Positions 5,366 to 17,902 of a stretch of DNA of 32,000 nt are shown one piece after another. The number at the start of each line of letters is the position of its first letter. Position 1 is the stretch's first letter. Source of the stretch: Methanobacteriota archaeon (GTDB lineage Archaea > JAADCQ01 > Methanopyri > Methanopyrales > Methanopyraceae); contig JAMOPY010000023.1 of assembly GCA_027064305.1 (NCBI GenBank), positions 16,569 through 48,568 on the forward strand, written 5' to 3'. The notes beneath the pieces were generated by a model that saw only the letters and a list, made by a program, of their open reading frames with translations, did not search any database and had not been told where the DNA came from. The position numbers and the translations under genes were made by a program.

Positions 5366-6162
5366 CCGGACGCACGGACCTGGACCGGGCCCTCGAGGTC
5401 GCGCGCCTGGTCTGCCGCCTGTGCCGGGAGCACGGGCTCGAGGTCATCGCGGACGAGACGCTGGGCCTGGAACGGGTCGAGGCGACGGACCTCCGCTCGC
5501 TGGGCGAGCTCTCGGACGTGATCGTCACCGTCGGCGGCGACGGTACCATCCTCCGCGTCTCCCGCCTCACCTCCGAGCACGAGGTGCCCCTCCTGGGCGT
5601 CAACTTGGGAAAGTTCGGGTTCCTCACCGAGGTGAGCGAGCGCGAGGTCCCGGAGGCGATCCGCCGGCTGGCCGAGGGGGACTTCACGGTGGAGGAACGG
5701 GACAAGCTGCTCGTGGAGGTGGGGGAGGAGGAGCGGGAGGACGTGCTCAACGAGGTGACCGTGACCACCAGCCGACCCGCCAAGATGATCCAGTACGGGC
5801 TGATCATCGACGGGTTCGAGGTCGAGCGGGCCTGGGCCGACGGGGTGCTGGTCTCGACCCCCACGGGCTCCACGGCCTACTCCCTGTCCGCGGGCGGCCC
5901 CATCGTGGAACCGTCCGTGGAGTGCATGATCATCACCCCGCTCAACCCGTTCAAGCTCGAGGCGCGCCCCATGGTCGTCTCCCTGAACCGTCGGGTGGAA
6001 ATCGAGGTTCACGACCCCGAACGCGCCGAGGTCGTGCTCGACGGCCAGAAGTACCTGCCCTTCCGCGAGCCCGTGGTCGTGACCCGGTCCGCTCACCGGG
6101 CCCGGTTCGTGCGCTTTGACTCCTCGTACTTCGAACGCCTCCGGGAGAAGTTCCTGGGGTGA
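5335..6162 (+). CDS. nadK: NAD kinase
   Basis: VTVGGDGTILR, GVNLGKFGFLTE, NEVTV and DGVLVSTPTGSTAYSLSAGGPIV are present. The ATG at 5335 lies 31 nt inside the upstream gene. The upstream part of the 441-aa track ORF is low-complexity read-through. Confidence 0.85.
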   Translation: MPRAPRTVGVTGRTDLDRALEVARLVCRLCREHGLEVIADETLGLERVEATDLRSLGELSDVIVTVGGDGTILRVSRLTSEHEVPLLGVNLGKFGFLTEVSEREVPEAIRRLAEGDFTVEERDKLLVEVGEEEREDVLNEVTVTTSRPAKMIQYGLIIDGFEVERAWADGVLVSTPTGSTAYSLSAGGPIVEPSVECMIITPLNPFKLEARPMVVSLNRRVEIEVHDPERAEVVLDGQKYLPFREPVVVTRSAHRARFVRFDSSYFERLREKFLG

Positions 6163-6264
6163 GGACCGTGGGCCGCGCCCGATCCACCCTCGCCCGCCTC
6201 GGAGGCTCGATCCTACGGTTCATGATGTGCGGCCGGATCGTCCCCGCACTCTCGCGGGCGTCCC

Positions 6265-6540
6265 TCATCCTCTGGAGGCTCCTCTACCGCGAGGGACGTC
6301 GAGCGAGGATACCACCCTGAGCGCGCGCACGGCCATCCGCACGTCCTCCTCCCGAACGGTCTTCCGACCCGCGTGCCGCGCGGCGAGCACCGACAGCTCC
6401 GCCAGCATCCGACCGAGCTCCTCGATCAGCCGAAAGTACTCCTCCTTCGCCTCCATCCGCACCCCCACGACGTCCCCGCCCGCCCGGGCCGACTCCCTCA
6501 GAATCCGCTCCAGCACGTTCGTCGGCAGGTCCACCTCCAT
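6265..6540 (-). CDS. Histone-fold protein (single fold, archaeal histone-like)
   Basis: DLPTNVLERILRE...EAKEEYFRLIEELGRMLAELSVLAARHAGRKTVREEDVRMAVRAL matches the LP..v.Ri...A.hagRKTv..eDi..A pattern. The ATG at 6540 follows GGTGG. The track start at 6549 is an upstream GTG. Confidence 0.7.
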   Translation of the reverse strand: MEVDLPTNVLERILRESARAGGDVVGVRMEAKEEYFRLIEELGRMLAELSVLAARHAGRKTVREEDVRMAVRALRVVSSLDVPRGRGASRG

Positions 6541-6557
6541 CCCAACCACCGCCCGGG

Positions 6558-6956
6558 GTGCCCCGGTTGCGATCCTACGTCCTGGACGCCTCGGCCTTCA
6601 TCAAGGGTGCCGTCCCGGACCGGGGCCGCCTCTACACCGTCCCCGAGGTCGTCGACGAGCTGCGCGACCCCCTCTCCCGCGCCCGGTTCGAGACCGCCCC
6701 CGTCCACGTCCGCGAGCCCGCAGGCTGGGCCGTCCGACGGGCCCGCAGGCGCGCCCGGCTCACCGGCGACGCGGATCGCCTCTCCATCACCGACCTAAAG
6801 GTGCTGGCGCTCGCCGTCGAACTCCGGTCCGAGGGCCGGGACGTCACCATCATCAGCTCCGACTACGCGCTTCAGAACGTCGCGAGATCCCTGAAGCTCG
6901 ACGTCTACGGCCCCGTGCACGGGGAGATAAGGGAGGTAAGGGGACCGACCCGATGA
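6558..6956 (+). CDS. Nob1-like PIN-domain endoribonuclease (no C-terminal zinc ribbon)
   Basis: YVLDASAFIKG...YTVPEVVDELRD...LTGDADRLSITDLKVLALAVEL...IISSDYALQNVA is the Nob1-type PIN pattern. The start is GTG 6558 or TTG 6567. The stop overlaps the next ATG (ATGA). Confidence 0.7.
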   Translation: MPRLRSYVLDASAFIKGAVPDRGRLYTVPEVVDELRDPLSRARFETAPVHVREPAGWAVRRARRRARLTGDADRLSITDLKVLALAVELRSEGRDVTIISSDYALQNVARSLKLDVYGPVHGEIREVRGPTR

Positions 6957-7813
6957 ACACCGTCGGCATCACCACCACCGTCACCGTGGCCGGGCTCACC
7001 GGGACCAAGCGGGTCACCGCCCGCGTGGACACCGGCGCCCGCTACGACGCCCTCGACTACACCCTCGCCGCCAAGATCGGGGCCGGCCCCGTCCTCGACG
7101 TCAAGAAGATCCGCTCCGCCACCGCCTCCCGCCTCAAGGCCGAGCGCCGACCCGTCGTTCCCCTCACCCTCAAGCTCGGCGACCGGCTCGTGCACACCCG
7201 CGCCACCCTCGCCGACCGCCGTGGGATGAGGTACCCGCTCATCATCGGCCGCGAGACCCTCCGCCGGGCCGGCGTCCTCGTCGACCCCACCCGACGATCC
7301 ACCGGGCGGGACGAGCGGGACCGCGACCCCGGGCGACGGGCCGCCAGCATGCTGCGCCTGCACACCGAGCTGCGCCGCGCGGTCCCGAAGGAGCGCGCCA
7401 TCACCCCAGCCATCCTGGCCCTACAGCACGGCGGCGCCTGGTCCTACCGGGACGAGGACGTCGTCTCCGTCGCCGTGCCCGTCCGGGAGGAGCGGGACGG
7501 GGTCGTGATCGAGCGACTGTACCTGCTCCTAGACCCGCGGATCGAGCGCTCCGAGGGCCGCATCGTCCGGCTGGAGAAGTGCGGCGAGGAGGACGTGCGA
7601 CGGGTGGCCGAGCGCCCCCGACTCCTGGAGGTCCGCCACGAGGGCGGGGCCACCGTGCGCATCGACCCCCACCGCCGCACCCTCCGCGTCACCCGGCTCG
7701 AGCCCGGCCGGATCACCTTCCGAGGCACCGCCGCGGCCAACGTCCACCACGAGCTCGCCCACCTCACGGAGGAGGAGCCCGGCCCCACCATCCTGGACTT
7801 CAAGATCGAGTGA
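6953..7813 (+). CDS. Retropepsin-like (RimB / 'ATP-dependent zinc protease' family) domain fused to an uncharacterised C-terminal domain containing HELAH
   Basis: The N-terminal VTARVDTGARYDAL...RRPVVPLTLKLGD...ATLADRRGMRYPLIIGRETLRRAGVLVDP matches the DTGA retropepsin-like family. The C-terminal 150 aa matches no recognised family but carries an HEXXH motif (VHHELAHL). ATGA coupling to the PIN gene. Confidence 0.65.
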   Translation: MNTVGITTTVTVAGLTGTKRVTARVDTGARYDALDYTLAAKIGAGPVLDVKKIRSATASRLKAERRPVVPLTLKLGDRLVHTRATLADRRGMRYPLIIGRETLRRAGVLVDPTRRSTGRDERDRDPGRRAASMLRLHTELRRAVPKERAITPAILALQHGGAWSYRDEDVVSVAVPVREERDGVVIERLYLLLDPRIERSEGRIVRLEKCGEEDVRRVAERPRLLEVRHEGGATVRIDPHRRTLRVTRLEPGRITFRGTAAANVHHELAHLTEEEPGPTILDFKIE

Positions 7814-7828: not shown

Positions 7829-8719
7829 ATGCCCCGAATCCTCCGCGTCGCCACCCGCTCCAGCCGGCTCGCCCTCACCCAAACGCGCGAGTTCCTGGAA
7901 CACCTCCGCAGCGAGCTCCCCCACGACGTCGAGTTCAAGCTGATCAAGACCCGGTCGAAGGGCGACCGCGTCCGGGACCGACCGCTCCACCGGCTCGGCG
8001 AGAAGGGGGTCTTCGTCAAGGCCGTCGACCGGCTCGTGCTGGAGGGGCGCGCCGACTGCGCCGTGCACAGCGCCAAGGACGTGCCCTCCGAGCCCGACTA
8101 CCCCGTCACCTTCGCCGCCGTACCCCCCCGCCGCGACCCCCGCGAGTGCCTCGTCTCGCGCACCGGGGCCCGGCTCAAGGAGCTCCCGAGCGGCTCCGTG
8201 GTGGGCACCAGCAGCCCCCGCCGCCGCGCCCAGATCCTCCTCGAGCGACCGGACCTCCGGGTCGAGCCCCTACGCGGGAACGTGGACACGCGCGTCCGGA
8301 AGGTGGAGCGTGGGGAGTTCGACGCCACCGTGCTCGCCAAGGTGGGGCTCGAGCGGCTCGGCCTGGAGGCCCGCATCTCCGAGGTGTTCGAGCCGGAGGA
8401 GTTCGTGCCGCCCGCCGGGCAGGGCGCGCTGCTGGTCACCTGCCGCCCCGACGACGACCGGACCCGAAGGCTGCTGGAGCACGGGGACGATCCCCGGAGC
8501 CGGGTCGAGGTGGAGGTGGAGAAGGAGATCGTGCGGCGGCTGGGGGTCGGCTGCGCCGAGCCCGTGGGCGTGTACGCCCGCGCCCGAGGGTCTCGAGTCC
8601 GGGTGGTGCTGAAGCTGCTCGACGGGGAGGGCACCCGGGCCCGACTGCTCAGCGAGCGCGGGAGCCCGGAGGAGGTGGTGGAGAGGATCGTCACCCGGGC
8701 CCGGGGAGCGTGGGCTTGA
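7829..8719 (+). CDS. hemC: Porphobilinogen deaminase (hydroxymethylbilane synthase)
   Basis: RVATRSSRLALTQT, IKTRSKGD, GEKGVFVKAVD, DCAVHSAKDVP, VGTSSPRRRAQ and LRGNVDTR are present. GGGAGGG SD lies 7 nt before the ATG. Confidence 0.9.
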   Translation: MPRILRVATRSSRLALTQTREFLEHLRSELPHDVEFKLIKTRSKGDRVRDRPLHRLGEKGVFVKAVDRLVLEGRADCAVHSAKDVPSEPDYPVTFAAVPPRRDPRECLVSRTGARLKELPSGSVVGTSSPRRRAQILLERPDLRVEPLRGNVDTRVRKVERGEFDATVLAKVGLERLGLEARISEVFEPEEFVPPAGQGALLVTCRPDDDRTRRLLEHGDDPRSRVEVEVEKEIVRRLGVGCAEPVGVYARARGSRVRVVLKLLDGEGTRARLLSERGSPEEVVERIVTRARGAWA

Positions 8720-9519
8720 GCGAGCGCGTCCTGTACCTCGTCGGGGCGGGCCTGGCCGACGTGCGGGACCTCACCGTCCGCGCCCTGAGGACGCTGGCCC
8801 GGGCGGACCTCGTGCTGGTGGACACGTACACGAGCGTGTACGAGCTCCGGGAGCGGGAGCTCCGGCGCCTACTGCGGGCGCTCGGACACGATCCCCCCGA
8901 GATCCGACCGTGCTCGCGGGAGGAGCTCGAGGAGCGGTTCTTCGAGGTGGTGGGGGAGGCCGAGCGGGTGGCCGTGCTCTCGCCGGGGGACCCGATGGTC
9001 GCCACGACGCACGCCACCCTGGCCGTGGAGGCCGCCCGGCGCGGCTGGTCGGTGAGGATCGTGCCCGGCGTGTCGATCCTCACCGCCGGGCCCGGTCGGG
9101 CGGGGCTGGAGCTGTACCGCTTCGGCCGGACCGCCACGATCCCGCTCCGCGTGCGGTCCGTGTACCCGTACGACGTGCTGGAGCGGAACCGGGACGCCGA
9201 CCTGCACACCCTGTTCCTGCTCGAGGCGGCCTCGGAGCGGGAGTACGTGTCCGTGGCGGACGCGGTCCGGTACCTGCTGGAGCTGGAGCGGGAGGAGGGT
9301 CGGGGCGTGGTCTCGCCGGACGACGAGGTGATCGGCGTGCTCCGGCTGGGGTTCGAGGACGAGCTGGTGGTCCGGGGGACGGTCCACGAGATGTCCGGGT
9401 GTTGGGACCCCGGGCCGCCGCAAGCTCTTATATATCCGGCCCGGCTGAGGGGGCCGGAGCGGGAGTTCCTCGAGCTCCTGGTCCCACACGTGCGAGACGC
9501 GCGGAGGCGTGGTGAGTGA
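8710..9519 (+). CDS. dphB: Diphthine synthase
   Basis: [56 protein letters not shown] and [11 protein letters not shown] are present. GTG at 8710 follows GGGGAG (alternative TTG 8716). It overlaps the end of hemC. Confidence 0.85.
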
Positions 9520-9878
9520 CCTTGGCCGAGGGTGAGGGTGGGGACTACCACGTCGTGCTGGAGGCCGCGTGGATCGTGTACAACGTGGACAGCGAGGACG
9601 ATGCCATCAACATCGCCATCGCGGAGGCCGGCAAGCGCCTGAACCGCCACGGCCTGGACTACGTGGACATCGACGTGGGCTTCTTCGAGTGCCCGGAGTG
9701 CGGCGAGGAGATCGAGGGCGTGTGGATCGTGGCCAACACCGCGCTGGTCAGGCTCCTCCTCTCCATGCGCGTGTTCAACGCCGAGAACGAGGAGCACGCG
9801 ATCCGGATCGCGAAGTACGAGATCGGCCAGGCGCTGGAGGACGTGCCGCTCGAGGTCGTGGAGGTCACCCCGATCTAG
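9516..9878 (+). CDS. UPF0212 / DUF555 family protein with CPECG zinc knuckle
   Basis: [30 protein letters not shown]...ECPECGEE...[32 protein letters not shown] matches the archaeal UPF0212 pattern. GTGA overlap with dphB. Confidence 0.7.
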
Positions 9879-10990
9879 AGCCGGTACCGCGCGATCACGT
9901 GCCCCCAGATCAGGGACGACAGCAGGGTGAAGGTGGCCAGCGCGAAGGAGTTCATCGCCCGCGAGAACAGGAAGGCGCCGATCAGGGACTGGATGGAGAA
10001 CGCCATCAGGCACCCGAACAGCAGGGCCTCCCGCGCCGCCAGCTCGGAGGAGAACTCGTACCGCCGGCGCCCCACGTACTCGGACAGGCACCTCGACCCC
10101 ACGTACAGCGTGATCCCGACCCAGAGCGACAGCAGGAACGCGCCCACGTACCCGAAGTCGAACGCCCAGACGAACACGCCCGGGAGCATGTAGTCCAGCA
10201 GGTCCTTCCTCGCGACCAGCGCGCCGTGCAGCGTGGGCACGTTCAGGTTGAACATGACCAGGTACCCCACGGGCAGCGTCACGAACCCGTCCCCGAACCC
10301 GCACCAGTGGTAACCCGCCGGGAGAGACTTGGTGGAGTGGCCCACCAGGTACGCGTTCTTGCGGATGAAATCCAGGCCCGGCACGGTGTACTCCGCGAAC
10401 CGCTTCACCCGCAGCGCCGGGCTGAGCACCGGCTTGTTCAACACCCGAGCCGCCGCCTCCATCAGCAGCAGGAGCCCCACCCCGATCGCGGAGACCGCGG
10501 CGATCACCCGCCGACTCATCTGGCCCGCGCGCGCGGCGAGGGCCCCGATCCTCGTCCCCACCTCCAGCTGCCGCGAGATCAGGTACTCGGTCCCGATCCA
10601 GCAGAGCAGCCAGGAGAGCAGGTAATCCCGGTGCATCACGCCCCCGAAGATCCCGGTGAACAGCCAGAGCGTGTTCAGCACCGGCCGGGTTCGGCGGGCC
10701 GCCGAGATCCCGCGCGCCTCCAGCAGGCCGATCAGGTACCGGGCCGAGGCCCACGCGGCGAGGGTCAAGGGCCCGAACGGGTGCGTGAACTCGTGCCTGG
10801 GGAGGGGGAGGAACAGCGACAGCATGTCCACGAAGAACATCAGCATCAGGACGGCCAGGAGGAGGATGGACAGGGACAGCACGCGCTGGATGGTCACGCT
10901 GGAGTAGGCCAGCGTGAGCGGGACCACGGTGTGGGTCATCAGGAGGAAGTCCACCAGCGCCTCGCCCGTGTTGTGCGGCACCAGGTACAA
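9875..10990 (-). CDS. Polytopic membrane protein (about 8-10 TM) of unknown family, last gene of the cell-wall cluster
   Basis: Multiple long hydrophobic segments plus one large loop ([51 protein letters not shown]). The TTG start lies 1 nt after the upstream stop, behind GAGGGTGG. Confidence 0.65.
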
Positions 10991-10991
10991 G

Positions 10992-12263
10992 CTACCACCC
11001 TCTCACGCGCCGGTACATCAGCTCCCTGACGCACCCCAGCACGATCAGGGTGACGCCCAGGGCGGAACCCACCAGGCCCAGCGCGTGCAGCACCTCCGTC
11101 GGCACGGGCGACTTCATCGGATGCTTCTTGTACCCGCGGGGTAGCGGTCGCATGTACACGGTGACCACGTTTGCCTTCTTCTCCACCTTCACGTCGCTCG
11201 GCAGCACGTAATCGTACCCCAGCAGGGTGTTGTTGTCGATCGCGTTGTCGATGGCCCGCGCGATGTCCTCAGGATCCCGCTTCCCGTGCTGGATCAGCGA
11301 CTGCACGATCTCCACGATGGTCGCCTTGTCGTGGGGGCCCCGAACCCCGTACACGCGCACCACCGGCTGGTTCCGACGCACGGTGATCAGGTCACGCGCC
11401 ACCTGCCAGGCGTACTCGGTCTTCAGCGGCGACCCGCACACCGGGCACCGCGTGTACCGGGCCGCCGTCGGGAAGGGCGCGCTCCACCCGCACTTGGTGC
11501 ACGCCTTCCGGTACGGGGCGTCCATCGGGAACCCCCGCTCGTTGAGCCGGGCGGGCACGAACGTGTCACCGGTGGAGAGGCCGGCGGTGATGTTCACGGC
11601 GCCGCCCCCGTACTTCTCACCGGACTTCTTGGCCACGTACCCCATCACCCGGGCGAGCACCTCCGTCGCCGGCAGCCCGTCCCGGATCATGCGGCCCGCC
11701 ATGATCGCCGCCTCGACGCGGACCCTCGTCGCCGTACCGTAGAGCGGGTTGCCCGGCGTGTTACGCAGGTGAATCACCGCGCACTTCACGTTCGGGGGGA
11801 TCTTGACGATGTTCGGGCCCGAACCGCTGTGATACTGCCGAATGATGATCTTGTTCCCCTTCACGAGGACCACGGCGATGTCGTAGCTACCGCCCACCAC
11901 GATGCCCCGGCGCGGTCCACCCACCAGCAGTCGATCCGTGGGCGACTTCTCGATCCCGGCCCGCACCGCCTCCTCCAGGGGCATCCCCAGCTCCAGCCGC
12001 CGAATGCACGCCAGGATCGCCTCCAGTCGCGCGGTACCCTTACCCAGACCACCCGCCAGCACGGCCACGTGCAGCTTCTTGGACACGAGGAACGTGGACT
12101 GGAACATGTTGGGGGCGAACGACATCGAGCCCGCGGCCGCGCCGTTCGGATCCTTGCCGCTGGGGTCGGTGATGACGATCATGTTAAACGTGGCCGAGGC
12201 GGCCGAGGGAAGCGCGACGAGCAGGGCCAGAACCGCGATCCACCACCGCTCGATGGTCCCCAC
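10992..12263 (-). CDS. Secreted, C-terminally membrane-anchored protein: Ntn-hydrolase-like N-terminus + Cys4 zinc ribbon + unknown domain
   Basis: A Sec-type signal peptide (WWIAVLALLVALPSAASA|TFNMIVITDPSG) would expose Thr as the first residue. CTKCG...CPVCG forms a zinc ribbon. The C-terminal TM helix is LHALGLVGSALGVTLIVLGCV followed by basic residues. The GTG start follows GAGGGGG. Confidence 0.65.
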   Translation of the reverse strand: MGTIERWWIAVLALLVALPSAASATFNMIVITDPSGKDPNGAAAGSMSFAPNMFQSTFLVSKKLHVAVLAGGLGKGTARLEAILACIRRLELGMPLEEAVRAGIEKSPTDRLLVGGPRRGIVVGGSYDIAVVLVKGNKIIIRQYHSGSGPNIVKIPPNVKCAVIHLRNTPGNPLYGTATRVRVEAAIMAGRMIRDGLPATEVLARVMGYVAKKSGEKYGGGAVNITAGLSTGDTFVPARLNERGFPMDAPYRKACTKCGWSAPFPTAARYTRCPVCGSPLKTEYAWQVARDLITVRRNQPVVRVYGVRGPHDKATIVEIVQSLIQHGKRDPEDIARAIDNAIDNNTLLGYDYVLPSDVKVEKKANVVTVYMRPLPRGYKKHPMKSPVPTEVLHALGLVGSALGVTLIVLGCVRELMYRRVRGW

Positions 12264-12269
12264 GCCCCC

Positions 12270-12689
12270 TCAGCGCGGCAGTCCGTAATCCTCGGTCACC
12301 CGGACGACCACGACCCCCGACCTCTTGACCGTGATGTGGACCGACTTGATGGGCTTGATCTTGGTGCCCGGGATCACGCTACGCATGGCGTAGATCCGAG
12401 CCTTACGAATCGCCTCCTGCAGCGGGATGCGCTTACCGTCCGGGGTGATCAGGACCCCGTTCCGCACGACCGACCCCGGGCGCAGTCCCGCCGCCATTAC
12501 GTTGCTCCTCACCACCTCCTCGGGCAGGAAGTCGCACCCGACCACGTCCACGCCGATGATCCTGATCCCCTCCTGCTTGGGCAGCGGCCGGCTCGCCCAC
12601 GCCGTGTACTCGGACAGTCGGCCCAACGCGAACAGGAGCGCGCCCAGCAGCATGATGGCCAGGTTACGCCTCGACACCCTGACTATCAT
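12270..12689 (-). CDS. Bitopic membrane protein with FtsQ/DivIB-like POTRA domain (tentative)
   Basis: MIVRVSRRNLAIMLLGALLFALG gives a short N-terminus and one TM helix. IRIIGVDVVGCDFLPEEVVRSNVMAAGLRPGS...IKSVHITVKRSGVVVVRVTED resembles the FtsQ POTRA pattern (I.V.G...ls.eeV......g.......V.s..V.r..P..l.I.V.E). The ATG at 12689 follows GGGGGTGGTGGG. The longer track ORF start is Cys/Trp/Arg-rich read-through. Confidence 0.5.
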   Translation of the reverse strand: MIVRVSRRNLAIMLLGALLFALGRLSEYTAWASRPLPKQEGIRIIGVDVVGCDFLPEEVVRSNVMAAGLRPGSVVRNGVLITPDGKRIPLQEAIRKARIYAMRSVIPGTKIKPIKSVHITVKRSGVVVVRVTEDYGLPR

Positions 12690-14142
12690 CGCCCACCACC
12701 CCCATCTCCCGCAGGATCCTCCGGGCCGGCTCCATCCCCTGCGCCCCACCCAGCAGCACGACCGTGTCCTCATCACTGAGCTCCAGCGCCCGCTCCAACG
12801 CCTCCTCCAACCGCTCGAAGTGCTCCCAGCTCACCCCACCGCGCCGCAGCTCCTCCAGGAACGCCTCCCGCTCCTCCTCCCGCACCACGTTCGCCTCGTC
12901 CACCAGGCCCTTCGAATCCGTGACCAGGATGCGCACCTCCATCCCCTCCCGCTCCAGCTCCCGGGCCCCCTCCACCAGCGCCCGCGCGATCTCCCGGTTG
13001 ATCTCCGTCCCGCGCGACCCTCGGATGGCGAAGACGATCACGGCCCGGCCCTTACCCAGCCTCCTCAACGCTCGCACCGTCGCCAGGACGCCGTCCGGGT
13101 TGTGACAGAAGTCGTCCACGATCAGCGGGTCCTCCGACAACCGCTCGAACCGGCGCTTCAGCGGCCGGTACGTGCGCAGCCCCTCCGCGACGTCCTCCTC
13201 CCCCACGCCCAGTGCGTGGGCGGCCGCGGTCGCGGCGAGCGCGTTGTACAGGAAGTGATCCACCGGCAGCGGGAACTCCCGAACGGGGATCAACGGCTCG
13301 TCCTCCAGCAGGATCCACTCCTCCCCGTCCACCTCGCTGATCCGGGCGACGCCCTCCTCCCACCCGTACCACACCACGTCCGGCGCGAGCGAGGCCATCT
13401 TCGCCACGCGCTCATCGTCCGCGTTCAGCACCGCGACCCCGTCCTCCAGCGCCCGCACCACCCCGGAGACGGCCTCCGCCATCTCCTCCAGCGAGGAGAC
13501 CAGGTTCGTGTGATCCACGCCCACGTTCGTCACCACGGCCACCTCGCAGCCCAGCGCCCGGGCCATCCGGTACGCGTGATCCTCCATGACCCGGCCGGTC
13601 GGCAGGCCCTGCACCTCCGAGACCTCCACGCACAGGGCGTCCCGCGGCCGGGCCTCGCGGAGCTCCATCGCCACGACGGGATCGATGAGCGTGTTCTTCT
13701 CCGACCGGAAGTCCGTGTTGCAGTACACGTCCCGGCCCGCGACCCGCAGGATGTGCGCCAGCAGGTGGTTGGTGGTGGACTTCCCGTTCGTCCCCGTCAC
13801 GCACACGGTGACGGCGTCGGCCGCGTACCTCCGCTTCGCCAGCCGCAGCGCGTACTCGTTCGCCCGATCCACCTCCGTCAGCACGAGCGGCAGGTCGCGG
13901 CGCCGGCACTCCTCCCGGAGCCGCCCCCGGGGCTCCTCGGTGACCAGGCACGCCACGCCGCGCTCGTCCGCCAGCTCCGCCCCGCGCTCGTCGAGCCACC
14001 ACCGGATCACCACGTCCCCCTCGCCCGCCCGGCCGAGCGTGGAGAACCAGCCGCGGATCCTCCGCTCGGGGTCCCCGACGACCAGCCTCCCGTCCACCCG
14101 CTCGGCCAGCTCCCCCACGGTGAGGTCCAGCAGCGCGATCAC
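12664..14142 (-). CDS. Mur-ligase family peptide ligase (MurE/MurF-like; pseudomurein-type)
   Basis: P-loop VCVTGTNGKSTT, VVTNVGVDHT, VLNADD, HFLYNALAATAAA, RRFE and DDFCHNPDG give the full three-domain Mur ligase layout. GTGA overlap with the upstream MraY-like gene. Confidence 0.85.
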   Translation of the reverse strand: MIALLDLTVGELAERVDGRLVVGDPERRIRGWFSTLGRAGEGDVVIRWWLDERGAELADERGVACLVTEEPRGRLREECRRRDLPLVLTEVDRANEYALRLAKRRYAADAVTVCVTGTNGKSTTNHLLAHILRVAGRDVYCNTDFRSEKNTLIDPVVAMELREARPRDALCVEVSEVQGLPTGRVMEDHAYRMARALGCEVAVVTNVGVDHTNLVSSLEEMAEAVSGVVRALEDGVAVLNADDERVAKMASLAPDVVWYGWEEGVARISEVDGEEWILLEDEPLIPVREFPLPVDHFLYNALAATAAAHALGVGEEDVAEGLRTYRPLKRRFERLSEDPLIVDDFCHNPDGVLATVRALRRLGKGRAVIVFAIRGSRGTEINREIARALVEGARELEREGMEVRILVTDSKGLVDEANVVREEEREAFLEELRRGGVSWEHFERLEEALERALELSDEDTVVLLGGAQGMEPARRILREMGVVGDDSQGVEA

Positions 14143-15206
14143 CCCGCGAGCCAGAGGGCGATGCCCGCGCAGACGGCGCCGGCCATCCAGTGCAGCGCCA
14201 CCACGACCGGCTCGGGCAGGTCGTACTTGTACTGGAGGTGGTGATGCAGCGGCTCCACCGCGAGCTTGATCACGCCCGCCCGGTGCAGGAGGCTGATGAT
14301 CGTGGACCCGACGGGCACGCCCAGGGCGACGACGGCGGGCACCTCGATCTTGTAGTACAAGGCACCGGCCGCGTACGCGGCCCCCAGGAAGCAGCTGCCC
14401 GTGTCACCCATGAAGATCTTGGCCGGGTACCGGTTGTGGAACAGGAAGCCCAGGGAGGCGCCGGCGAGCGACGCGAAGAACGCGGCCCCGGGGAGCTGGT
14501 TGTGGACCAAGCACACCCCGGAGCACGCCAGAGAGGCGAGGAACAGCAGCCCCGCGGCCAGCCCGTCCATCCCGTCGATCAGGTTCACCGCGTTGGTGGC
14601 CCCGACCACGCCGAAGATCGCCAGCGGGTAGAACAGCCAGGACAGGTCGATCGCGCCGAGGTGCGGGAACCAGAGCCACGTGGCGGGCACGATGGGGAGC
14701 ACGAACAGGGCGGCCCCGGCCTGCAGCGCCAGCTTCTCCCGCTCGCTCAGCTCCTTCTTGACCGGGACCTCACCCACGATCTCGATCTTGTCCGGGGCCT
14801 CCCGCATCAGCCGCTTCAGGTCCCGCTTGGCCCGCTCCGTGGCCACGCGCGCCTCCTCACCGGGCTGCAGCACGAGCCGACCGATCCGGATCGGCTCATC
14901 GGAAACGTTCTTCACCACCTTCTGAAACTCCTTCACCTGCAGCCCGAGCAGGTCGTCCACCACGCCCAGCACCAGCATCGGGAGCGCCGAGGCGACCGGA
15001 GGGAGCGCCTGGATCGACACCAGGAGCGGCCCCGCGACCGTGCCCAGCAGGATCCCGAACCCTCCCATGATCGGCGTGCCGGCCTTGTGCGAGTGCTCCG
15101 TGACGATCGGACGGTCCACCACCCTGGCCTCCCGCATGTACCGGCGAAGCAGCCGCACGGTGACCCAGGACGTCACCGTGGAGATCGAGAACGTCTCCAC
15201 GATCAA
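14139..15206 (-). CDS. MraY-type polyprenyl-phosphate phospho-sugar/peptide transferase (GT4 family)
   Basis: DRPIVTEHSHKAGTPIMGG, LGVVDDLLGL, NAVNLIDGMDGLAAG, HNRYPAKIFMGDTGS and the MraY-specific EPLHHH motif are present. The TTG start follows GGGGAGGAG. Confidence 0.85.
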   Translation of the reverse strand: MIVETFSISTVTSWVTVRLLRRYMREARVVDRPIVTEHSHKAGTPIMGGFGILLGTVAGPLLVSIQALPPVASALPMLVLGVVDDLLGLQVKEFQKVVKNVSDEPIRIGRLVLQPGEEARVATERAKRDLKRLMREAPDKIEIVGEVPVKKELSEREKLALQAGAALFVLPIVPATWLWFPHLGAIDLSWLFYPLAIFGVVGATNAVNLIDGMDGLAAGLLFLASLACSGVCLVHNQLPGAAFFASLAGASLGFLFHNRYPAKIFMGDTGSCFLGAAYAAGALYYKIEVPAVVALGVPVGSTIISLLHRAGVIKLAVEPLHHHLQYKYDLPEPVVVALHWMAGAVCAGIALWLAG

Positions 15207-15222: not shown

Positions 15223-16362
15223 CTACAGGAACTTGCCGGCCTCCCTGATCCTCAACTCAAACTCCTTCTCCGCCAGCCGCACGTTCGCGCCCGCCGCCCG
15301 GAAGGCCGACCGCAGCCTCTCGAACGCCTCCTTAAACGATTCACCCCGGACGGTGATCCTCCCGGCCACGTCCATCCGGCCCCGGTACTCGTAGAACACG
15401 TGGTACGCTCCCCCGTCGAACCGCTCCCTAAGGGGCTCCCGACGGGACGCGTTCCACACCGGACACTCGATCGCGTGCCAGACCTTCCTGACCCGGGGCG
15501 GCCGCCAGCGCCCCACCACCATGTCCACGAGCTCCCGCAGCGGCCAGACTCCGGAACAGCCCGAGGTCATGTACCGCGTGCCGCTGGGCCGCGGGTTGAA
15601 CTCCAGGAACCAGAACTCATCCTCCCGCACCACCACGTCGAAGTCGACCGTCCCCTCCAGCCCCAACCGCTTCACGAGCCGAACCGCGCAGCGCTTGATC
15701 CCCCGCTCCACCGACCCGTCCAGCGGGGCCGGCGCCAGCCGCATCCGCTCGATCGGGTGATCCTCGTCCAGCGTCGAACCCTTGAACACCGGCACGAGCG
15801 GCACGACCTCCCCGTCCCAGGACAGCACCTCGATCGACACCTCCGCCCCCTCGACGAACTCCTCCACCAGCCGCCTCCCGTGCACCCGGGGCACCGACCG
15901 CTCGTACACGTTCACGTTGATCCCGGCCTGCGACCTCGGATCCTTCACCACGAGCGGCGGGCGCAGCCGGGGCCGCTCATCCTCCACCACCTCCCACTCC
16001 GGCGTCGGGATGTTCAGCTCCTCGAACGCCCGCTTCGCCCGGATCTTGTCCACCCCGGTCCGCGTCCCCTCCAACCCCGAGGCGGCGACGGGGATCCCCT
16101 CCGACTCCAGCCGCTCCTTCATTTCCGCCACCTCAAGCAGCGGATCGTCCACGCCGATGAGCGGGACCACCCCGTCCACCTCCCGCTCGAGCGCGATCCG
16201 CGCCGGGTGCTCCATGCCCCGGGGCACGAAGTGCACCTCGTCCGCCAGCTCCCAGTCCCAACTCTCCGGGTTCGACTCGGTCAGGATCCGGTACACCCCG
16301 GTGGACCCGGCGTACTCCGCCACGTCCCGGAACAGCCGGGCCCCCACGAACAGGACCCTCAA
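15223..16362 (-). CDS. ATP-grasp ligase (Ddl / CarB-like)
   Basis: KIRAKRAFEELNIPTPEW, PLVVKD, LVEEFVEGAEVSIEVL and WFLEFNPRPSGT show the ATP-grasp fold pattern. A TTG start at 16362 is inferred from the GGAGGAGGG SD and a TTGA overlap with the upstream stop. The track ORF start at 16593 is Gly/Arg read-through. Confidence 0.8.
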   Translation of the reverse strand: MRVLFVGARLFRDVAEYAGSTGVYRILTESNPESWDWELADEVHFVPRGMEHPARIALEREVDGVVPLIGVDDPLLEVAEMKERLESEGIPVAASGLEGTRTGVDKIRAKRAFEELNIPTPEWEVVEDERPRLRPPLVVKDPRSQAGINVNVYERSVPRVHGRRLVEEFVEGAEVSIEVLSWDGEVVPLVPVFKGSTLDEDHPIERMRLAPAPLDGSVERGIKRCAVRLVKRLGLEGTVDFDVVVREDEFWFLEFNPRPSGTRYMTSGCSGVWPLRELVDMVVGRWRPPRVRKVWHAIECPVWNASRREPLRERFDGGAYHVFYEYRGRMDVAGRITVRGESFKEAFERLRSAFRAAGANVRLAEKEFELRIREAGKFL

Positions 16363-17897
16363 CCCTCCTCCCCCAGCTCCTCCTCGAGCTCCCTCAGCAC
16401 GTCCTCCTTGAACTTCAGCGCCGCCTCCCCGAACACCACGATCACCTCGCACCCCGACTCCAACGCCGCCCGCAGCCCGTCCAGCACCTGCTCCCGGGAG
16501 GCGCCCAGCGTCCCCCGCTTCTCGAACCGCTCCGCGGCGCTCTCCGCCGCCACCACGTTGTCCGCCCCCACCTCCTCGAGCACCCGGTAGCACGCGTGCG
16601 AGGCCGCGATCACCCGGTCCGCGATCCGGGCCGCCCGCTCCAGGATCTCACGATCCCCCTCCGGGCCCAGCTCCGAGGCCACCGCGATGACCGCGCACAG
16701 GCGCCGGTCCGGGTACGCCTGCCTCAGGCACCGCAGGGTCGCCTCCACGCCCGCCGGGTTGTGACCGTAGTCGACGATCACCACCCGCTCCCCATCGTCC
16801 CACACGACGTCGAGCCGACCCTCCACCCCCTCGAACGAGCCGAGGGCCCGCGCCACCTCCTCCGGGTCCAGGTCCAGGAACTCGATGCAGACGGCCGCGG
16901 CCGCCACGGCGTTGTACACGTTATGCAGCCCCATCACGGGCAGGCCAACCTCGAACTCACCCTCCGGGCAGGCCAGCGTGAACCCGTCCAGAGAGACGTC
17001 CACGGCCAGGTAGTCCGGGGACGGCGTCTCCAACCCGCACTCGCACCGGAAGTCGCCCACCCACGGAAGGATCTCCCTCACCTCCGCCCGCCCACCGCAC
17101 CAGCACTCCTTCTCCACGGTCCCCACGGGCTCCGCCTCCACCCCGAAGTAAACGACCTCCCCCTCGAACCCCACCTCCTCCGGCGCGCCCACCACCAGCG
17201 GATCCTGCGCGTTCAGCACGGCCACCTCCACCGAGTCCGGCTCGAGCAGCTCGATCTCGCACCGCGCGTACGTCCGGAAGTCCCCGGCCTTGTTCAGGTG
17301 ATCCGGCGTGATGTTCGTCAGGCACGCGCACTCCACCTCCGCCCACCTCGCCGCCTCCAGGATCTCCCCCCGCTCCCCGAACGTCGCGATCTCCAGCACG
17401 CTCACGTCACCCGGCAACCGCGCCTGCAGCGGGGGCAGGTACCCCACGTTCCCCTGCATCCCCGGCAGCCCGTGATCCCGCACCTCCAGCCCCAGCTCCC
17501 GGCACACGTGCCGTATCATCGCCACGGTCGTCGTCTTCCCGTTCGTACCCCCCACGCCCACCACCGGCCGGGTGGGGGGAATCCGCTCGAGCACGTCCTC
17601 CACCTCGTACACCCGGCACCCGTACCGACGGGCCAGCCGGTACGGAGGTGACCCCTCCTCCAGGCTGGGCGGCGGGACCACCGCGTCCGCCCGCCGAAAC
17701 AGCCACTCCGGGTGGCCCCCCAGCACGACCTCCACGTTCGGGTACTCCAGCAGCGGGTCCAGCAGCTCGCACTCCTCCTCGTCCTTCACGTCCGAGGCGA
17801 TCACGTGGTAGTCCCGCTCCGCGAGCACCCGGGCCACCAGGTTGCACACGGGCCCGCACACGCCGATCACCAGCACCGTGCGCCCCTGCACGCGCAT
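16359..17897 (-). CDS. Mur-ligase family peptide ligase (MurD/MurC-like N-terminal Rossmann domain; Cys4 insertion)
   Basis: RTVLVIGVCGPVCNLVARVL (MurD-like domain 1), VGVGGTNGKTTT, LTNITPDHL, VLNAQD, GLHNVYNAVAAAA and VDYGHNPAG are present. The ATG at 17897 follows GAGGGGG. The upstream 332 aa of the 844-aa track ORF is out-of-frame read-through of the PP-loop gene. Confidence 0.85.
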   Translation of the reverse strand: MRVQGRTVLVIGVCGPVCNLVARVLAERDYHVIASDVKDEEECELLDPLLEYPNVEVVLGGHPEWLFRRADAVVPPPSLEEGSPPYRLARRYGCRVYEVEDVLERIPPTRPVVGVGGTNGKTTTVAMIRHVCRELGLEVRDHGLPGMQGNVGYLPPLQARLPGDVSVLEIATFGERGEILEAARWAEVECACLTNITPDHLNKAGDFRTYARCEIELLEPDSVEVAVLNAQDPLVVGAPEEVGFEGEVVYFGVEAEPVGTVEKECWCGGRAEVREILPWVGDFRCECGLETPSPDYLAVDVSLDGFTLACPEGEFEVGLPVMGLHNVYNAVAAAAVCIEFLDLDPEEVARALGSFEGVEGRLDVVWDDGERVVIVDYGHNPAGVEATLRCLRQAYPDRRLCAVIAVASELGPEGDREILERAARIADRVIAASHACYRVLEEVGADNVVAAESAAERFEKRGTLGASREQVLDGLRAALESGCEVIVVFGEAALKFKEDVLRELEEELGEEG

Positions 17898-17902
17898 CCC
17901 CC

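Follow-up and report, generated by a model that had tools for sequence, protein, structure and literature searches.

A membrane-tethered Mfer764-family protein with a predicted Ntn-hydrolase-like fold is a candidate enzyme of pseudomurein assembly

Introduction

The extracellular polymerisation and cross-linking of pseudomurein pose a long-standing question, raised again by a gene lying inside a pseudomurein ligase operon in a Methanopyrus-lineage contig. The structure and biosynthesis of pseudomurein were worked out from the late 1970s to the early 1990s. No orthologue of a penicillin-binding protein (PBP)-type or other transpeptidase, or of a transglycosylase, is known for this polymer (PMC10117817), and the published cross-linking candidates are transglutaminase-like proteins (PMC10117817, PMC11915815).

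The gene belongs to the Mfer764 family, which was published earlier as conserved and pseudomurein-specific, without an assigned function (PMC10117817, PMC11915815). A literature search returned no fold or function assigned to the family, and no paper tying pseudomurein to an Ntn enzyme or a SEDS protein. As a pseudomurein candidate the family is therefore already in the literature, while its reading as an Ntn enzyme appears to be new. That reading was first made from the sequence alone, as an exported, Ntn-hydrolase-like protein whose N-terminal Thr would be unmasked by signal peptidase. Here, we ask how far the family, the predicted fold and the genomic setting agree with it. The window is the whole stretch of 32,000 nucleotides that was analysed; all coordinates refer to it, and all features described lie on its minus strand.

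Family membership and distribution

The gene (10992..12263, stop codon 10992–10994) encodes 423 amino acids from a GTG start codon. The protein matches the NCBIfam model NF053642 with an E-value of 7.8e-162 and 538.6 bits, residues 24–418 aligning with positions 1–391 of the 393-position profile. This score is 21 bits under the curated equivalog cutoff of 560, for which the divergence of the Methanopyrus lineage likely accounts. There are 339 homologues, which together with the NF053642 match put the signal beyond chance; judged from sequence, this is a real gene, and it represents Methanopyrus in the Mfer764 family (NF053642; OG0001472 in Lupo et al. 2025; ‘Con Pro’ in Subedi et al. 2021). 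The window protein shares with the family a full-length match, a place downstream of pMurE and Mfer763, a signal peptide and a single transmembrane segment. Methanobacteriales members are 43–49% (∼45%) identical to it, and despite this modest overall identity ∼70 residues are invariant.

Every homologue with a named source comes from Methanopyrus or the Methanobacteriales. An exhaustive HMMER search of 1.84 billion representatives gave 64 matches (two full-length clusters, the rest fragments) and no distant relatives outside the pseudomurein methanogens. The lone non-family match, P0181, is a repetitive Ig-like protein and was discarded as an artefact. This restricted range agrees with the expectation that orthologues would not be widespread beyond pseudomurein archaea.

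Signal peptide and mature N-terminus

The signal peptide occupies residues 1–24 (12192..12263) and ends in S-A-S-A, the junction in the window protein reading MGTIERWWIAVLALLVALPSAASA before the predicted cleavage site and TFNMIVITDPSGKD after it. Its n-region, hydrophobic core and [V/S/A]-[A/S]-A motif are kept across 119 Mfer764-family orthologues, with Ala at position −1 in 118 of the 119 and Val, Ser or Ala at position −3 in every one. Published SignalP results assign Sec/SPI and one transmembrane segment to the orthologue of Methanopyrus sp. KOL6 (PMC11915815 supplement), and ‘OTHER’ to two of four Mfer764-family orthologues (PMC11915815). The Sec signal peptide ending in SAASA that had been noticed in the sequence is thus a conserved feature of the family, and the KOL6 result agrees with it.

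The residue at +1 is Thr in 119/119 orthologues. In the window protein this is Thr25 (codon 12189..12191), the predicted mature N-terminus and proposed nucleophile; its conservation and its place directly after the conserved AxA site are as the sequence-only reading had supposed. Asn27 is equally invariant, and both residues precede Met28, at which two database gene calls (P0001 and P0003) begin to give a protein of 396 amino acids. We rejected this internal ATG as the start, as it has no ribosome-binding-like site and would cost the protein its conserved signal peptide together with the invariant Thr25 and Asn27. The GTG, in turn, lies 6 nucleotides downstream of the stop codon of the preceding gene and follows the sequence GAGGGGG.

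The window protein has no propeptide besides the signal peptide, and so differs from an Ntn-type autoproteolytic precursor; unmasking of Thr25 would therefore fall to signal peptidase, which we infer to cleave at the AxA/Thr bond. One Methanopyrus-like metagenomic orthologue, which has no canonical start codon, carries Pro at position −1. Signal-peptidase cleavage immediately in front of Thr sits poorly with such a residue, and that protein might need another route to a free Thr.

Predicted fold of the N-terminal domain

The AlphaFold2 model of the window protein (pLDDT 86, pTM 0.74) contains an N-terminal catalytic-type domain, residues 25–249 (11517..12191), built as a four-layer αββα sandwich. 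Its elements follow in the order four strands, two helices, six strands, two helices and one strand, and strand 1 (DSSP E25–31) starts at Thr25. The alignment behind the model was shallow (Neff ∼2), so the fold may be over-confident.

A Foldseek search of the PDB with this model gave nine matches at E ≤ 1e-3, all of them Ntn hydrolases (permuted taspase-1 and NAAA). The best is an engineered circularly permuted taspase-1 (E 7e-7, probability 1.0), which carries its nucleophile Thr at chain position 2; NAAA follows at E 5.5e-4. HslV, Anbu and proteasome subunits match at E-values of 2e-3 to 6e-2. The HslV chains (168–178 residues) align over 204–213 columns with TM-scores of 0.55–0.60, a length equal to the query span 25–∼230, which implies that the alignment begins at about Thr25. 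Matches to the bile salt hydrolase fold are weak (probability ∼0.3). Conservation is highest in the blocks 31–60, 121–130, 161–170 and 191–200, with the peak for the whole protein at residues 31–60, right behind the mature N-terminus. Structure prediction thus returned the αββα sandwich that had been expected, with Ntn hydrolases as the top PDB matches, and the N-terminal domain is predicted to be Ntn-hydrolase-like in fold.

Profile searches with the same family gave no such link. Pfam returned no Ntn family for 20 full-length members at E ≤ 1 or for three isolated N-terminal domains at E ≤ 10, and the likeness to DUF1028 (PF06267) suggested by the sequence-only reading found no match in these searches. 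Pfam matches to PF00227 (Peptidase T1) and PF01112 (type-2 asparaginase/taspase) were likewise absent. The family profile found no Ntn protein among PDB sequences, its sole match being a zinc ribbon at E 2.7. With hhalign there was no similarity to Escherichia coli HslV (probability 0.2%), to EcAIII rearranged into beta-then-alpha order (0.5%) or, in local and global mode, to a 31-sequence archaeal proteasome-beta profile (≤0.3%). Several motif pairs picked out by eye were dropped as evidence: K62...AGG71-72 with Lys33...Gly47, G176-T177 with Gly128-Ser129, ‘EKYGGGAVN’ with the proteasome ‘RDAYSGGAVN’, and ‘HLRNT’ with the EcAIII ‘HLRNP’. Since hhalign paired another glycine-rich hairpin (residues 120–134) with the proteasome motif, such matches evidently arise by chance.

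Zinc-ribbon-like region, C-terminal domain and membrane anchor

A zinc-ribbon-like knuckle pair follows at residues 250–284 (11412..11516), modelled by AlphaFold2 with three short strands. The four cysteines (C255, C258, C273 and C276) lie in CTKCG...CPVCG at residues 255–276. Pfam matches to zinc ribbons are weak, the best being to DZR, with E 0.023 in the window protein itself and down to 0.0035 in orthologues. The Cys4 ribbon seen in the sequence is therefore present in the window protein, but only part of it is fixed in the family: C255 and C273 are invariant, whereas positions 258 and 276 are Cys or Asp (patterns CCCC, n=89; CCCD, n=20; CDCD, n=10). Asp can substitute for Cys as a metal ligand, and the Cys/Asp pattern in the sequences favours a metal site over disulfides; the disulfide reading was rejected, as CCCD would leave one Cys unpaired.

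The third domain, noted earlier as rich in Asp, Asn and Ile, does exist, as a C-terminal ecto-domain at residues ∼285–375 (11139..11411). It is modelled as a small α/β domain (H285–293, E301–305, H310–325, H331–343, E358–361 and E366–370), and has no Pfam family match. It is followed by the predicted transmembrane anchor, a hydrophobic helix in the AlphaFold2 model at residues 391–412 (11028..11093), and by a basic tail, residues 413–423 (RELMYRRVRGW; 10995..11027), predicted to be cytoplasmic. Conserved residues at the helix are G396, G403, L406 and R413. Averaged over the family, the segment following the helix carries a net charge of +3.9 and the one preceding it −0.9, a bias that would place the tail inside the cell and the ectodomain outside, in keeping with the anchor and basic tail first read from the sequence.

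Gene cluster

The cluster runs in the order pMurC, ATP-grasp, MraY, pMurE, Mfer763-like and Mfer764-family gene, and NCBIfam matches confirm the claimed placement inside a ligase operon. pMurC (16359..17876, start approximate) matches NF053645 at E 3.1e-182, above the cutoff; the match covers residues 341–832 of the 844-residue ORF 16359–18893, and the true start, given here approximately, is internal. The pseudomurein ATP-grasp (Ddl_archaea) protein (15223..16593) matches NF053643 at E 3e-96 over residues 79–425, and its ORF is probably over-extended at the 5′ end. The archaeal MraY-family transferase (14139..15206) matches NF053644 at E 9e-132, and the pseudomurein peptide ligase pMurE (12664..14142) matches NF053648 at E 6.7e-169.

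Directly upstream of the Mfer764-family gene lies that of a small exported or anchored Mfer763-family protein (12270..12689; NF053641, E 8.6e-47, residues 30–165), which likely begins at Met30 of the 168-residue ORF. A Sec signal peptide has been reported for this family (PMC11915815). The two genes are always adjacent, in this order, in Methanobacterium, Methanobrevibacter and Methanopyrus lineages, and the order pMurE–Mfer763–Mfer764 is the same in Methanobacterium, Methanobrevibacter and three Methanopyrus-lineage contigs; in the literature, the Mfer764-family gene is placed downstream of MraY, pMurE and Mfer763 (PMC10117817). The order seen in the window thus recurs in other lineages.

On the downstream side, 9875..10990 encodes a 371-residue polytopic membrane protein, a candidate SEDS/WaaL-like glycan polymerase or ligase. 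Its AlphaFold2 model (pLDDT 83, pTM 0.83) has ∼10 transmembrane helices and a large loop at residues 213–280. The top Foldseek match is FtsW (8bh1_A; probability 0.99, E 0.029, TM-score 0.41) and the second WaaL (7tpg_B; probability 0.96), with all others below a probability of 0.2. Neither Pfam, FTSW_RODA_SPOVE included, nor NCBIfam gave a match to this protein, and hhalign found no link to E. coli RodA (probability 0.1%); one homologue matched Pfam Wzy_C_2 at E 0.03. Homologues occur in Methanopyrus and Methanobacteriaceae only, and the gene adjoins the Mfer764-family gene in Methanopyrus lineages.

Proposed function and alternative explanations

None of the conditions named as refuting the sequence-only reading was borne out, and that reading is partly supported. 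The genomic context suggests a role in cross-linking or trimming. We propose, tentatively and at a little short of an even chance, that the Mfer764-family protein is a tethered Ntn-type amidase or acyltransferase of pseudomurein assembly with Thr25 as its nucleophile, cross-linking being preferred over trimming. As a type-I membrane protein it would be exported by Sec and cut by signal peptidase after SAASA, giving Thr25 a free N-terminus, while the C-terminal helix would keep the ectodomain tethered to the membrane's outer surface. With the residue's own free α-amino group as activator, the hydroxyl of Thr25 could then attack an amide bond in the stem peptide of lipid-linked or nascent pseudomurein. 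Within the stem Glu-gamma-Ala-epsilon-Lys(-gamma-Glu)-Ala, the terminal Lys–Ala bond would be the most plausible target. Release of the leaving group would yield an acyl-enzyme ester, which the amine of a neighbouring stem would resolve into a cross-link (the preferred reading), or water into carboxypeptidase or endopeptidase trimming. The reaction would proceed outside the cell without ATP, as its energy would come from a bond already formed in the cytoplasm. The zinc knuckle and small C-terminal domain may serve as a pedestal, or as a module binding the wall or a partner; the likely partner is the co-translated Mfer763-like protein and, in Methanopyrus, the adjacent FtsW/WaaL-like protein could be a further one, by analogy with polymerase–transpeptidase pairs.

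Transfer chemistry of this kind has precedents among Ntn-type enzymes. γ-Glutamyl transpeptidase is an extracytoplasmic Thr-Ntn enzyme that passes a γ-glutamyl acyl-enzyme on to an amine or to water. A second precedent is the archaeal Connectase, a monomeric proteasome-beta homologue that works as a transpeptidase (PMC7980362).

A wider reading, which we regard as somewhat unlikely, makes the Mfer764 protein the missing pseudomurein transpeptidase, a sequence-orphan Thr-Ntn enzyme acting with a previously unrecognised SEDS/WaaL-like glycan polymerase and Mfer763. The three would form an archaeal equivalent of the bacterial FtsL–FtsI–FtsW module, with an Ntn fold in place of the penicillin-binding fold. 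The signal-peptidase-unmasked enzyme would cross-link all-L stem peptides, and the polymerase would be encoded next to it in Methanopyrus and in one or two copies elsewhere.

The alternative that survives best, itself unlikely, keeps the fold and the Thr nucleophile and makes the chemistry purely hydrolytic: a tethered pseudomurein endopeptidase, carboxypeptidase or amidase that forms no cross-links. Such an enzyme could open cross-links to make space, or trim stems (for example, of the terminal Ala) near the membrane during growth. The fold relatives recovered (taspase, NAAA, HslV, the proteasome and bile salt hydrolase) are hydrolases without exception, the best of them from the type-2 asparaginase/isoaspartyl peptidase family, which cleaves iso-peptide-type bonds. 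In bacteria, hydrolases of the wall tend to be redundant and dispersed, and it is the cross-linking enzyme that lies within the core synthesis cluster; the Mfer764-family gene is universal, occurs as a single copy and keeps its place in the synthesis operon, which argues against a hydrolase. That the literature gives cross-linking to transglutaminase-like proteins would also favour hydrolysis here, but by established chemistry a transglutaminase requires a Gln donor and the pseudomurein stem has Glu.

A non-catalytic role as scaffold or regulator is quite unlikely; here the protein would be an Ntn-like pseudo-enzyme serving to position or activate the polymerase or another synthase, like the FtsQLB-type bitopic proteins of bacteria, or to bind nascent pseudomurein. 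No catalytic motif is detectably shared with any Ntn family, the zinc knuckle and small α/β domain suit interactions, and the gene is always paired with that of the small exported partner. Against this stand the extreme conservation at the mature N-terminus and in the loops, more typical of an active site, and the invariant +1 Thr, hard to account for without chemistry.

A PP2C-like or metal-dependent domain, acting as a phosphatase or pyrophosphatase on a lipid-linked precursor or wall-polymer linkage with Thr25 purely structural, is very unlikely. PP2C/SpoIIE/RsbU phosphatases are interleaved among the weaker Foldseek matches from E 1.5e-3 upward (3ke6_B, E 1.5e-3; 3pu9_A, E 2.3e-3; 2xzv, TM-score 0.48), a viral structure library gave no significant fold match and a PPM-type match among those returned, and many Asp, Asn, His and Glu residues that such an enzyme would use are invariant (D33, D38, H165, N168, D195, E216, N224 and D233). 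The matches at E ≤ 1e-3 are nonetheless all Ntn, and those to PP2C have lower TM-scores or very high r.m.s.d. Pfam PP2C, PP2C_2 and SpoIIE give no match even at E 10, and the positions of the ‘DGxGG’ and ‘DN’ aspartates are, judged by eye, Ser/Ala and variable. Moreover, the invariant Thr at the signal-peptidase junction would be left unexplained.

Least probable of all is an uncleaved signal anchor, or a cytoplasmic tail-anchored protein started at Met28, in which Thr25 is never a free N-terminus: the two database gene calls and the ‘OTHER’ SignalP results point that way and an intracellular site would suit the zinc ribbon (zinc ribbons are mostly cytoplasmic), but the canonical signal peptide upstream of Met28 is kept in ∼100 full-length orthologues, the ribosome-binding-like site stands at the GTG and not at Met28, the charge bias places the C-terminal tail inside the cell, and strict anaerobes could hold extracellular Cys-metal sites reduced.

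Significance and comparison with known systems

The preferred reading, of a Thr25-dependent enzyme that cross-links pseudomurein, gives the ‘conserved hypothetical’ of two genomic studies a hypothesis that covers fold, nucleophile, maturation, topology and, in Methanopyrus, an adjacent FtsW-like candidate polymerase. If true, it would add a third chemistry for wall cross-linking beside those of the Ser-PBPs and the Cys L,D-transpeptidases, and explain at the level of an enzyme why pseudomurein archaea are insensitive to penicillin. It would also offer an inhibitor target in rumen and gut methanogens, as covalent warheads that act on Ntn threonine enzymes are already available. If wrong, the Mfer764-family gene is an ordinary, already catalogued, lineage-specific gene.

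Among known systems, the taspase-1/type-2 asparaginase family has its Thr nucleophile at a strand start, as proposed for the window protein, and its members cleave iso-peptide-type (β-aspartyl) bonds. Natural members are alpha-then-beta precursors that undergo autoproteolysis, whereas the window protein matches the permuted order only; they are also soluble and have neither zinc knuckle nor transmembrane anchor, both of which are predicted here. HslV, the proteasome beta subunits and Anbu share the chain order of the window protein, Thr first and then β-β-β-β-α-α-β...α-α-β. Profile similarity to HslV and proteasome beta is absent, however, as is any sign of ring assembly; no Asp17/Lys33-type catalytic set could be placed in the window protein, which is predicted to be extracellular and membrane-tethered.

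γ-Glutamyl transpeptidase serves as a working analogy: it is not among the Foldseek matches listed, has no sequence similarity to the window protein and, unlike it, is an autoprocessed heterodimer. For the maturation step a parallel may be the Gram-negative choloylglycine-hydrolase-type penicillin V acylases, in which removal of the signal peptide, not autoproteolysis, reportedly bares the N-terminal nucleophile. These acylases, unlike the window protein, use a Cys nucleophile and are soluble periplasmic tetramers.

With the class B PBPs (FtsI, PBP2) and their SEDS partners (FtsW, RodA), the analogy is functional and genomic only. Class B PBPs have an unrelated fold, a Ser nucleophile in SxxK and an N-terminal anchor, where the Mfer764 protein is anchored C-terminally, and they use a D-Ala-D-Ala donor that is absent from pseudomurein. 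Like the Mfer764-family protein as predicted here, they are single-pass, outward-facing proteins encoded beside Mur ligases and MraY.

The target gene lies in a pseudomurein precursor cluster

The target gene (10992–12263, − strand) is a single open reading frame of 423 aa with a GTG start. Its product matches NCBIfam NF053642 ('Mfer764 family protein') over residues 24–418 (E = 7.8e-162, 538.6 bits, which is 21 bits below the equivalog cutoff), and the frame is a real gene. A protein search returned 339 homologues, with the closest named one from Methanopyrus kandleri (78% identity) and the remainder from Methanobacterium, Methanobrevibacter and Methanobacteriaceae at 43–49% identity.

A reading made earlier from the sequence alone had placed the gene inside a ligase operon, and this context is correct. 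The genes for pMurC (about 16359–17876), a pseudomurein ATP-grasp protein (15223–16593), an archaeal MraY (14139–15206), pMurE (12664–14142) and, between pMurE and the target, a small Mfer763-family protein (12270–12689) are all co-directional with the target on the − strand, and a gene for a polytopic membrane protein of 371 aa (9875–10990, −) follows downstream. The longest Mfer763-family frame (12270–12776, −) and the end of pMurE have 113 nt in common; the family model begins at Met30 of that frame (MIVRVSRRNLAIMLLGALLFALG…), giving a protein of ~139 aa with a signal or anchor at its N-terminus. Its stop lies 6 nt from the target start, a spacing that suggests coupled translation of the two genes. 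Below the cluster, the opposite (+) strand bears an ORF (6116–7813) encoding a retropepsin-like RimB/RloA aspartic peptidase domain and a gene for a DUF555 protein (9516–9878), with hemC (7829–8719) between them. This arrangement is kept in other Methanopyrus-lineage contigs, and the gene after hemC corresponds in position to one that encodes a TP_methylase domain in related contigs.

When 1.84 billion cluster representatives were searched exhaustively with HMMER, only 64 proteins reached E ≤ 1e-3 against the family profile, comprising two full-length clusters (one Methanobacteriales, one Methanopyrus) and, for nearly all of the others, short fragments. The single outlier, P0181 (1027 aa, tandem Ig-like repeats), was rejected as a relative; its E of 5e-5 is a repeat-summation artefact arising from ten weak repeat matches to profile positions 200–236. 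Contigs from Methanobacterium, Methanobrevibacter and, in three cases, the Methanopyrus lineage share one gene order, in which ATP-grasp, MraY and Mur ligase(s) are followed by the small protein (143–156 aa) and the target, and across the compared lineages the stop of the small gene often adjoins or overlaps the target start. The target is, by these computations, restricted to pseudomurein organisms and obligatorily linked to pseudomurein precursor genes. Subedi et al. (2021) reported that Mfer763 and Mfer764 always lie downstream of pMurE, carry TM segments and are without homology to annotated proteins, and the observed distribution and synteny are also consistent with Lupo et al. Both the family and its candidacy for a part in pseudomurein synthesis are already published.

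A signal peptide precedes an invariant threonine

In 119 aligned orthologues, the N-terminus comprises an n-region rich in K/R, a 12–14-residue hydrophobic core and a c-region, with V, S or A at position −3 in all and Ala at position −1 in 118. The predicted first mature residue, Thr25, is Thr in all 119; position +2 is Phe in Methanopyrus and Cys in most Methanobacteriales, and position +3 is an invariant Asn. The sequence-only reading had proposed an exported protein with a signal peptide ahead of an N-terminal Thr, and it is borne out by this conserved n/h/c pattern, by the cleavage-site residues and by the conservation of Thr25 itself.

The upstream stop is followed after 6 nt by the GTG at 12263, which has GAGGGGG ahead of it and is a better start than Met28. 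The latter, annotated for the database homologues P0001 and P0003 (two Methanopyrus assemblies; 396 aa), lacks a GAGGGGG-like site and deletes a conserved segment (window 12182–12263, −), so that the signal peptide is lost together with Thr25 and Asn27, both invariant. SignalP results in the supplement of PMC11915815 list the Methanopyrus sp. KOL6 orthologue as Sec/SPI plus one TM segment and two of four orthologues as 'OTHER', which truncated annotated starts may explain. The orthologue on a Methanopyrus-like metagenomic contig (L004:5941–6090) reads ...ALQPVSP immediately before TCN, with Pro at −1, which makes a poor signal-peptidase site. Its annotated start region is weakly hydrophobic, and from the upstream stop to that start neither ATG nor GTG nor TTG occurs. 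A signal-peptide-like frame (IRRFLAILVAL…) extends upstream, again lacking a canonical start codon. This oddity may stem from a fault in sequencing or annotation, or may mark a lineage that unmasks the Thr by another route.

The N-terminal domain is predicted to adopt an Ntn-type fold

An AlphaFold2 model built from the 119-sequence alignment had a mean pLDDT of 86 and a pTM of 0.74, where the high pLDDT may overstate certainty because the alignment is shallow (Neff about 2). In the model, a signal-peptide helix and a low-confidence linker (19–22) lead into a strand (residues 25–31) that begins exactly at Thr25. The N-domain is made up, in order, of four strands, helices 76–91 and 96–106, six strands, helices 178–194 and 199–214, and a strand at 218–224. 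It is followed by three short strands around cysteines, a small α/β domain (285–375) and a TM helix.

A Foldseek search of the PDB produced nine matches at E ≤ 1e-3, all of them Ntn (N-terminal nucleophile) hydrolases: eight circularly permuted human taspase-1 chains (E = 7e-7 to 4e-6, probability 1.0) and NAAA (5.5e-4). Next came HslV from three species (target-normalised TM 0.55–0.60, rmsd 4–5 Å), and then ClpQ, Anbu, proteasome subunits and bile salt hydrolase. Residues 179–246 of E. coli EcAIII, which start at its nucleophile, align to positions 2–75 of 6ugk_A, placing the nucleophile Thr of the permuted taspase at chain position 2, so the target's best match is an engineered, nucleophile-first Ntn enzyme. 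The HslV chains (168–178 residues) align over 204–213 columns, and since this count equals the target span 25–~230, their alignments most likely begin at Thr25. The Ntn fold and nucleophile-first order anticipated from the sequence thus agree with the predicted model, in which Thr25 opens strand 1.

A rival reading, which we keep, is a PP2C-type N-domain. PP2C-type phosphatases do appear among the Foldseek matches from E = 1.5e-3 upward, but with lower TM or very large rmsd, and the isolated N-domains matched no PP2C Pfam model even at E = 10, nor any Ntn or DUF1028 model. We consider an Ntn-type sandwich fold probable, with good confidence.

At the sequence level, Pfam detected only sub-threshold zinc ribbons in the family, the family profile retrieved nothing from PDB sequences but one zinc ribbon (E = 2.7), and hhalign of the family with HslV, with EcAIII rearranged as beta-alpha, and with a profile of 31 archaeal proteasome beta subunits gave probabilities below 1% in each case. 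By-eye motif resemblances to Ntn enzymes were dropped, as hhalign matched another glycine-rich hairpin to the proteasome motif, which indicates how easily such matches arise. The resemblance to DUF1028 that had been noted at the mature N-terminus is unsupported as homology; the other tests run on the sequence-only reading were favourable, and as an interpretation it is supported in part, with the catalytic role and the reaction still putative. Very low mutual sequence similarity is normal among Ntn families (PMC5474475), and the assignment of the target draws on the predicted fold and the conservation pattern.

A putative metal knuckle and a C-terminal anchor

C255 and C273 are invariant in the 119 orthologues, and C258 and C276 are either Cys or Asp (CCCC in 89, CCCD in 20, CDCD in 10). 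Because of this alternation, the patterns fit a metal knuckle rather than two disulfides; the four cysteines of the previously proposed Cys4 ribbon are present, but only half of them are conserved. Such a putative extracellular Cys/Asp knuckle would be unusual, yet plausible in strict anaerobes.

A hydrophobic helix (391–412) is followed by RELMYRRVRGW, and the family-wide mean net charge is −0.9 on the N-terminal side of the helix and +3.9 on the C-terminal side. This bias, in keeping with the TM anchor and basic tail described from the sequence, predicts a cytoplasmic tail and a protein body outside the cell. Just before the helix, Methanobacteriales carry a conserved W-[D/N]-L-P-[I/V]-[D/S]-x-x-[I/V] motif (residues 381–389; window 11097–11123, −), most commonly as WDLPIDGNI or WDLPVDGNI, and Methanopyrus has SPVPTEV at this site. 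Speculatively, the motif taken with the helix and tail that follow it is reminiscent of a sortase-type sorting signal, and Lupo et al. describe a pseudomurein-specific 'Sortase E'-like gene. The predicted combination of Ntn domain, metal knuckle, small α/β domain and C-terminal anchor would be a new architecture.

A proposed role for Thr25 in pseudomurein assembly

Our computations show export signals together with an Ntn-like predicted fold, an outward topology and, where the mature chain is predicted to begin, an invariant Thr, and we regard the target as very probably an exported, membrane-tethered component of pseudomurein assembly. That Thr25 is its catalytic nucleophile is somewhat favoured. 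Signal peptidase, rather than autoproteolysis, would free Thr25, whose hydroxyl, with its own alpha-amine as base, would attack an amide of the stem peptide, which is Glu-gamma-Ala-epsilon-Lys-Ala with Glu gamma-linked on Lys (PMC10117817). The acyl-enzyme could be resolved by the amine of another stem, giving a cross-link with the terminal Lys-Ala bond spent, or alternatively by water, resulting in trimming or space-making.

These outcomes are not separable by computation, and we prefer transfer over hydrolysis because the gene occurs in a single copy, is universal and stays fixed within a synthesis operon, as is typical of bacterial transpeptidases and not of autolysins; because we know of no other pseudomurein transpeptidase candidate with suitable chemistry; and because Ntn enzymes, gamma-glutamyl transpeptidase among them, catalyse transpeptidation. 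The archaeal Connectase is a further Ntn enzyme with this activity (PMC7980362). Cross-linking as the reaction of the target is put forward tentatively, as a possibility well short of probable.

The searchable literature contained no paper giving the Mfer764 family an Ntn fold or tying pseudomurein to Ntn enzymes. To the extent of our searches, three points appear to be new: the Ntn-type fold, an invariant Thr that signal peptidase would expose, and a neighbouring gene whose product is FtsW/WaaL-like. The family would represent an Ntn fold without detectable sequence relatives and with an unusual activation route. Its interest is high because the long-standing question of the extracellular steps of pseudomurein synthesis becomes open to direct experiments on one residue, Thr25.

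The downstream membrane protein shows a marginal fold likeness to FtsW and WaaL

The gene for the 371-aa protein starts at 10990, one base after the target stop codon. Family searches with the protein returned no match, and its homologues are found in Methanopyrus and Methanobacteriaceae only. In the model (pLDDT 83, pTM 0.83), about ten TM helices are accompanied by a long loop (213–280) in which invariant residues abound (K262, D263, D266, Y267, D278 and Y281). Foldseek against the PDB matched FtsW of the FtsWIQBL complex (8bh1_A; probability 0.99, E = 0.029, TM 0.41) and the O-antigen ligase WaaL (7tpg_B; probability 0.96), with all remaining matches below probability 0.2; the structural likeness is marginal, and sequence methods gave no confirmation of it. 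Both of these proteins are glycosyltransferases working at the outer face of the membrane with undecaprenyl-diphosphate-linked donors, FtsW being a SEDS peptidoglycan polymerase. The 371-aa protein is a candidate for polymerising or ligating the pseudomurein glycan. It is probably the orthologous group OG0000796 of Lupo et al., which is specific to pseudomurein archaea, has 9–10 TM segments and one or two copies per genome, adjoins the cluster in Methanopyrus only, and is carried as function-unassigned in the literature searched. If the FtsW/WaaL reading is right, the Methanopyrus cluster would resemble the bacterial dcw arrangement in combining Mur ligases and MraY with a small bitopic protein, a bitopic enzyme that faces outward and a polymerase of the SEDS-like type.
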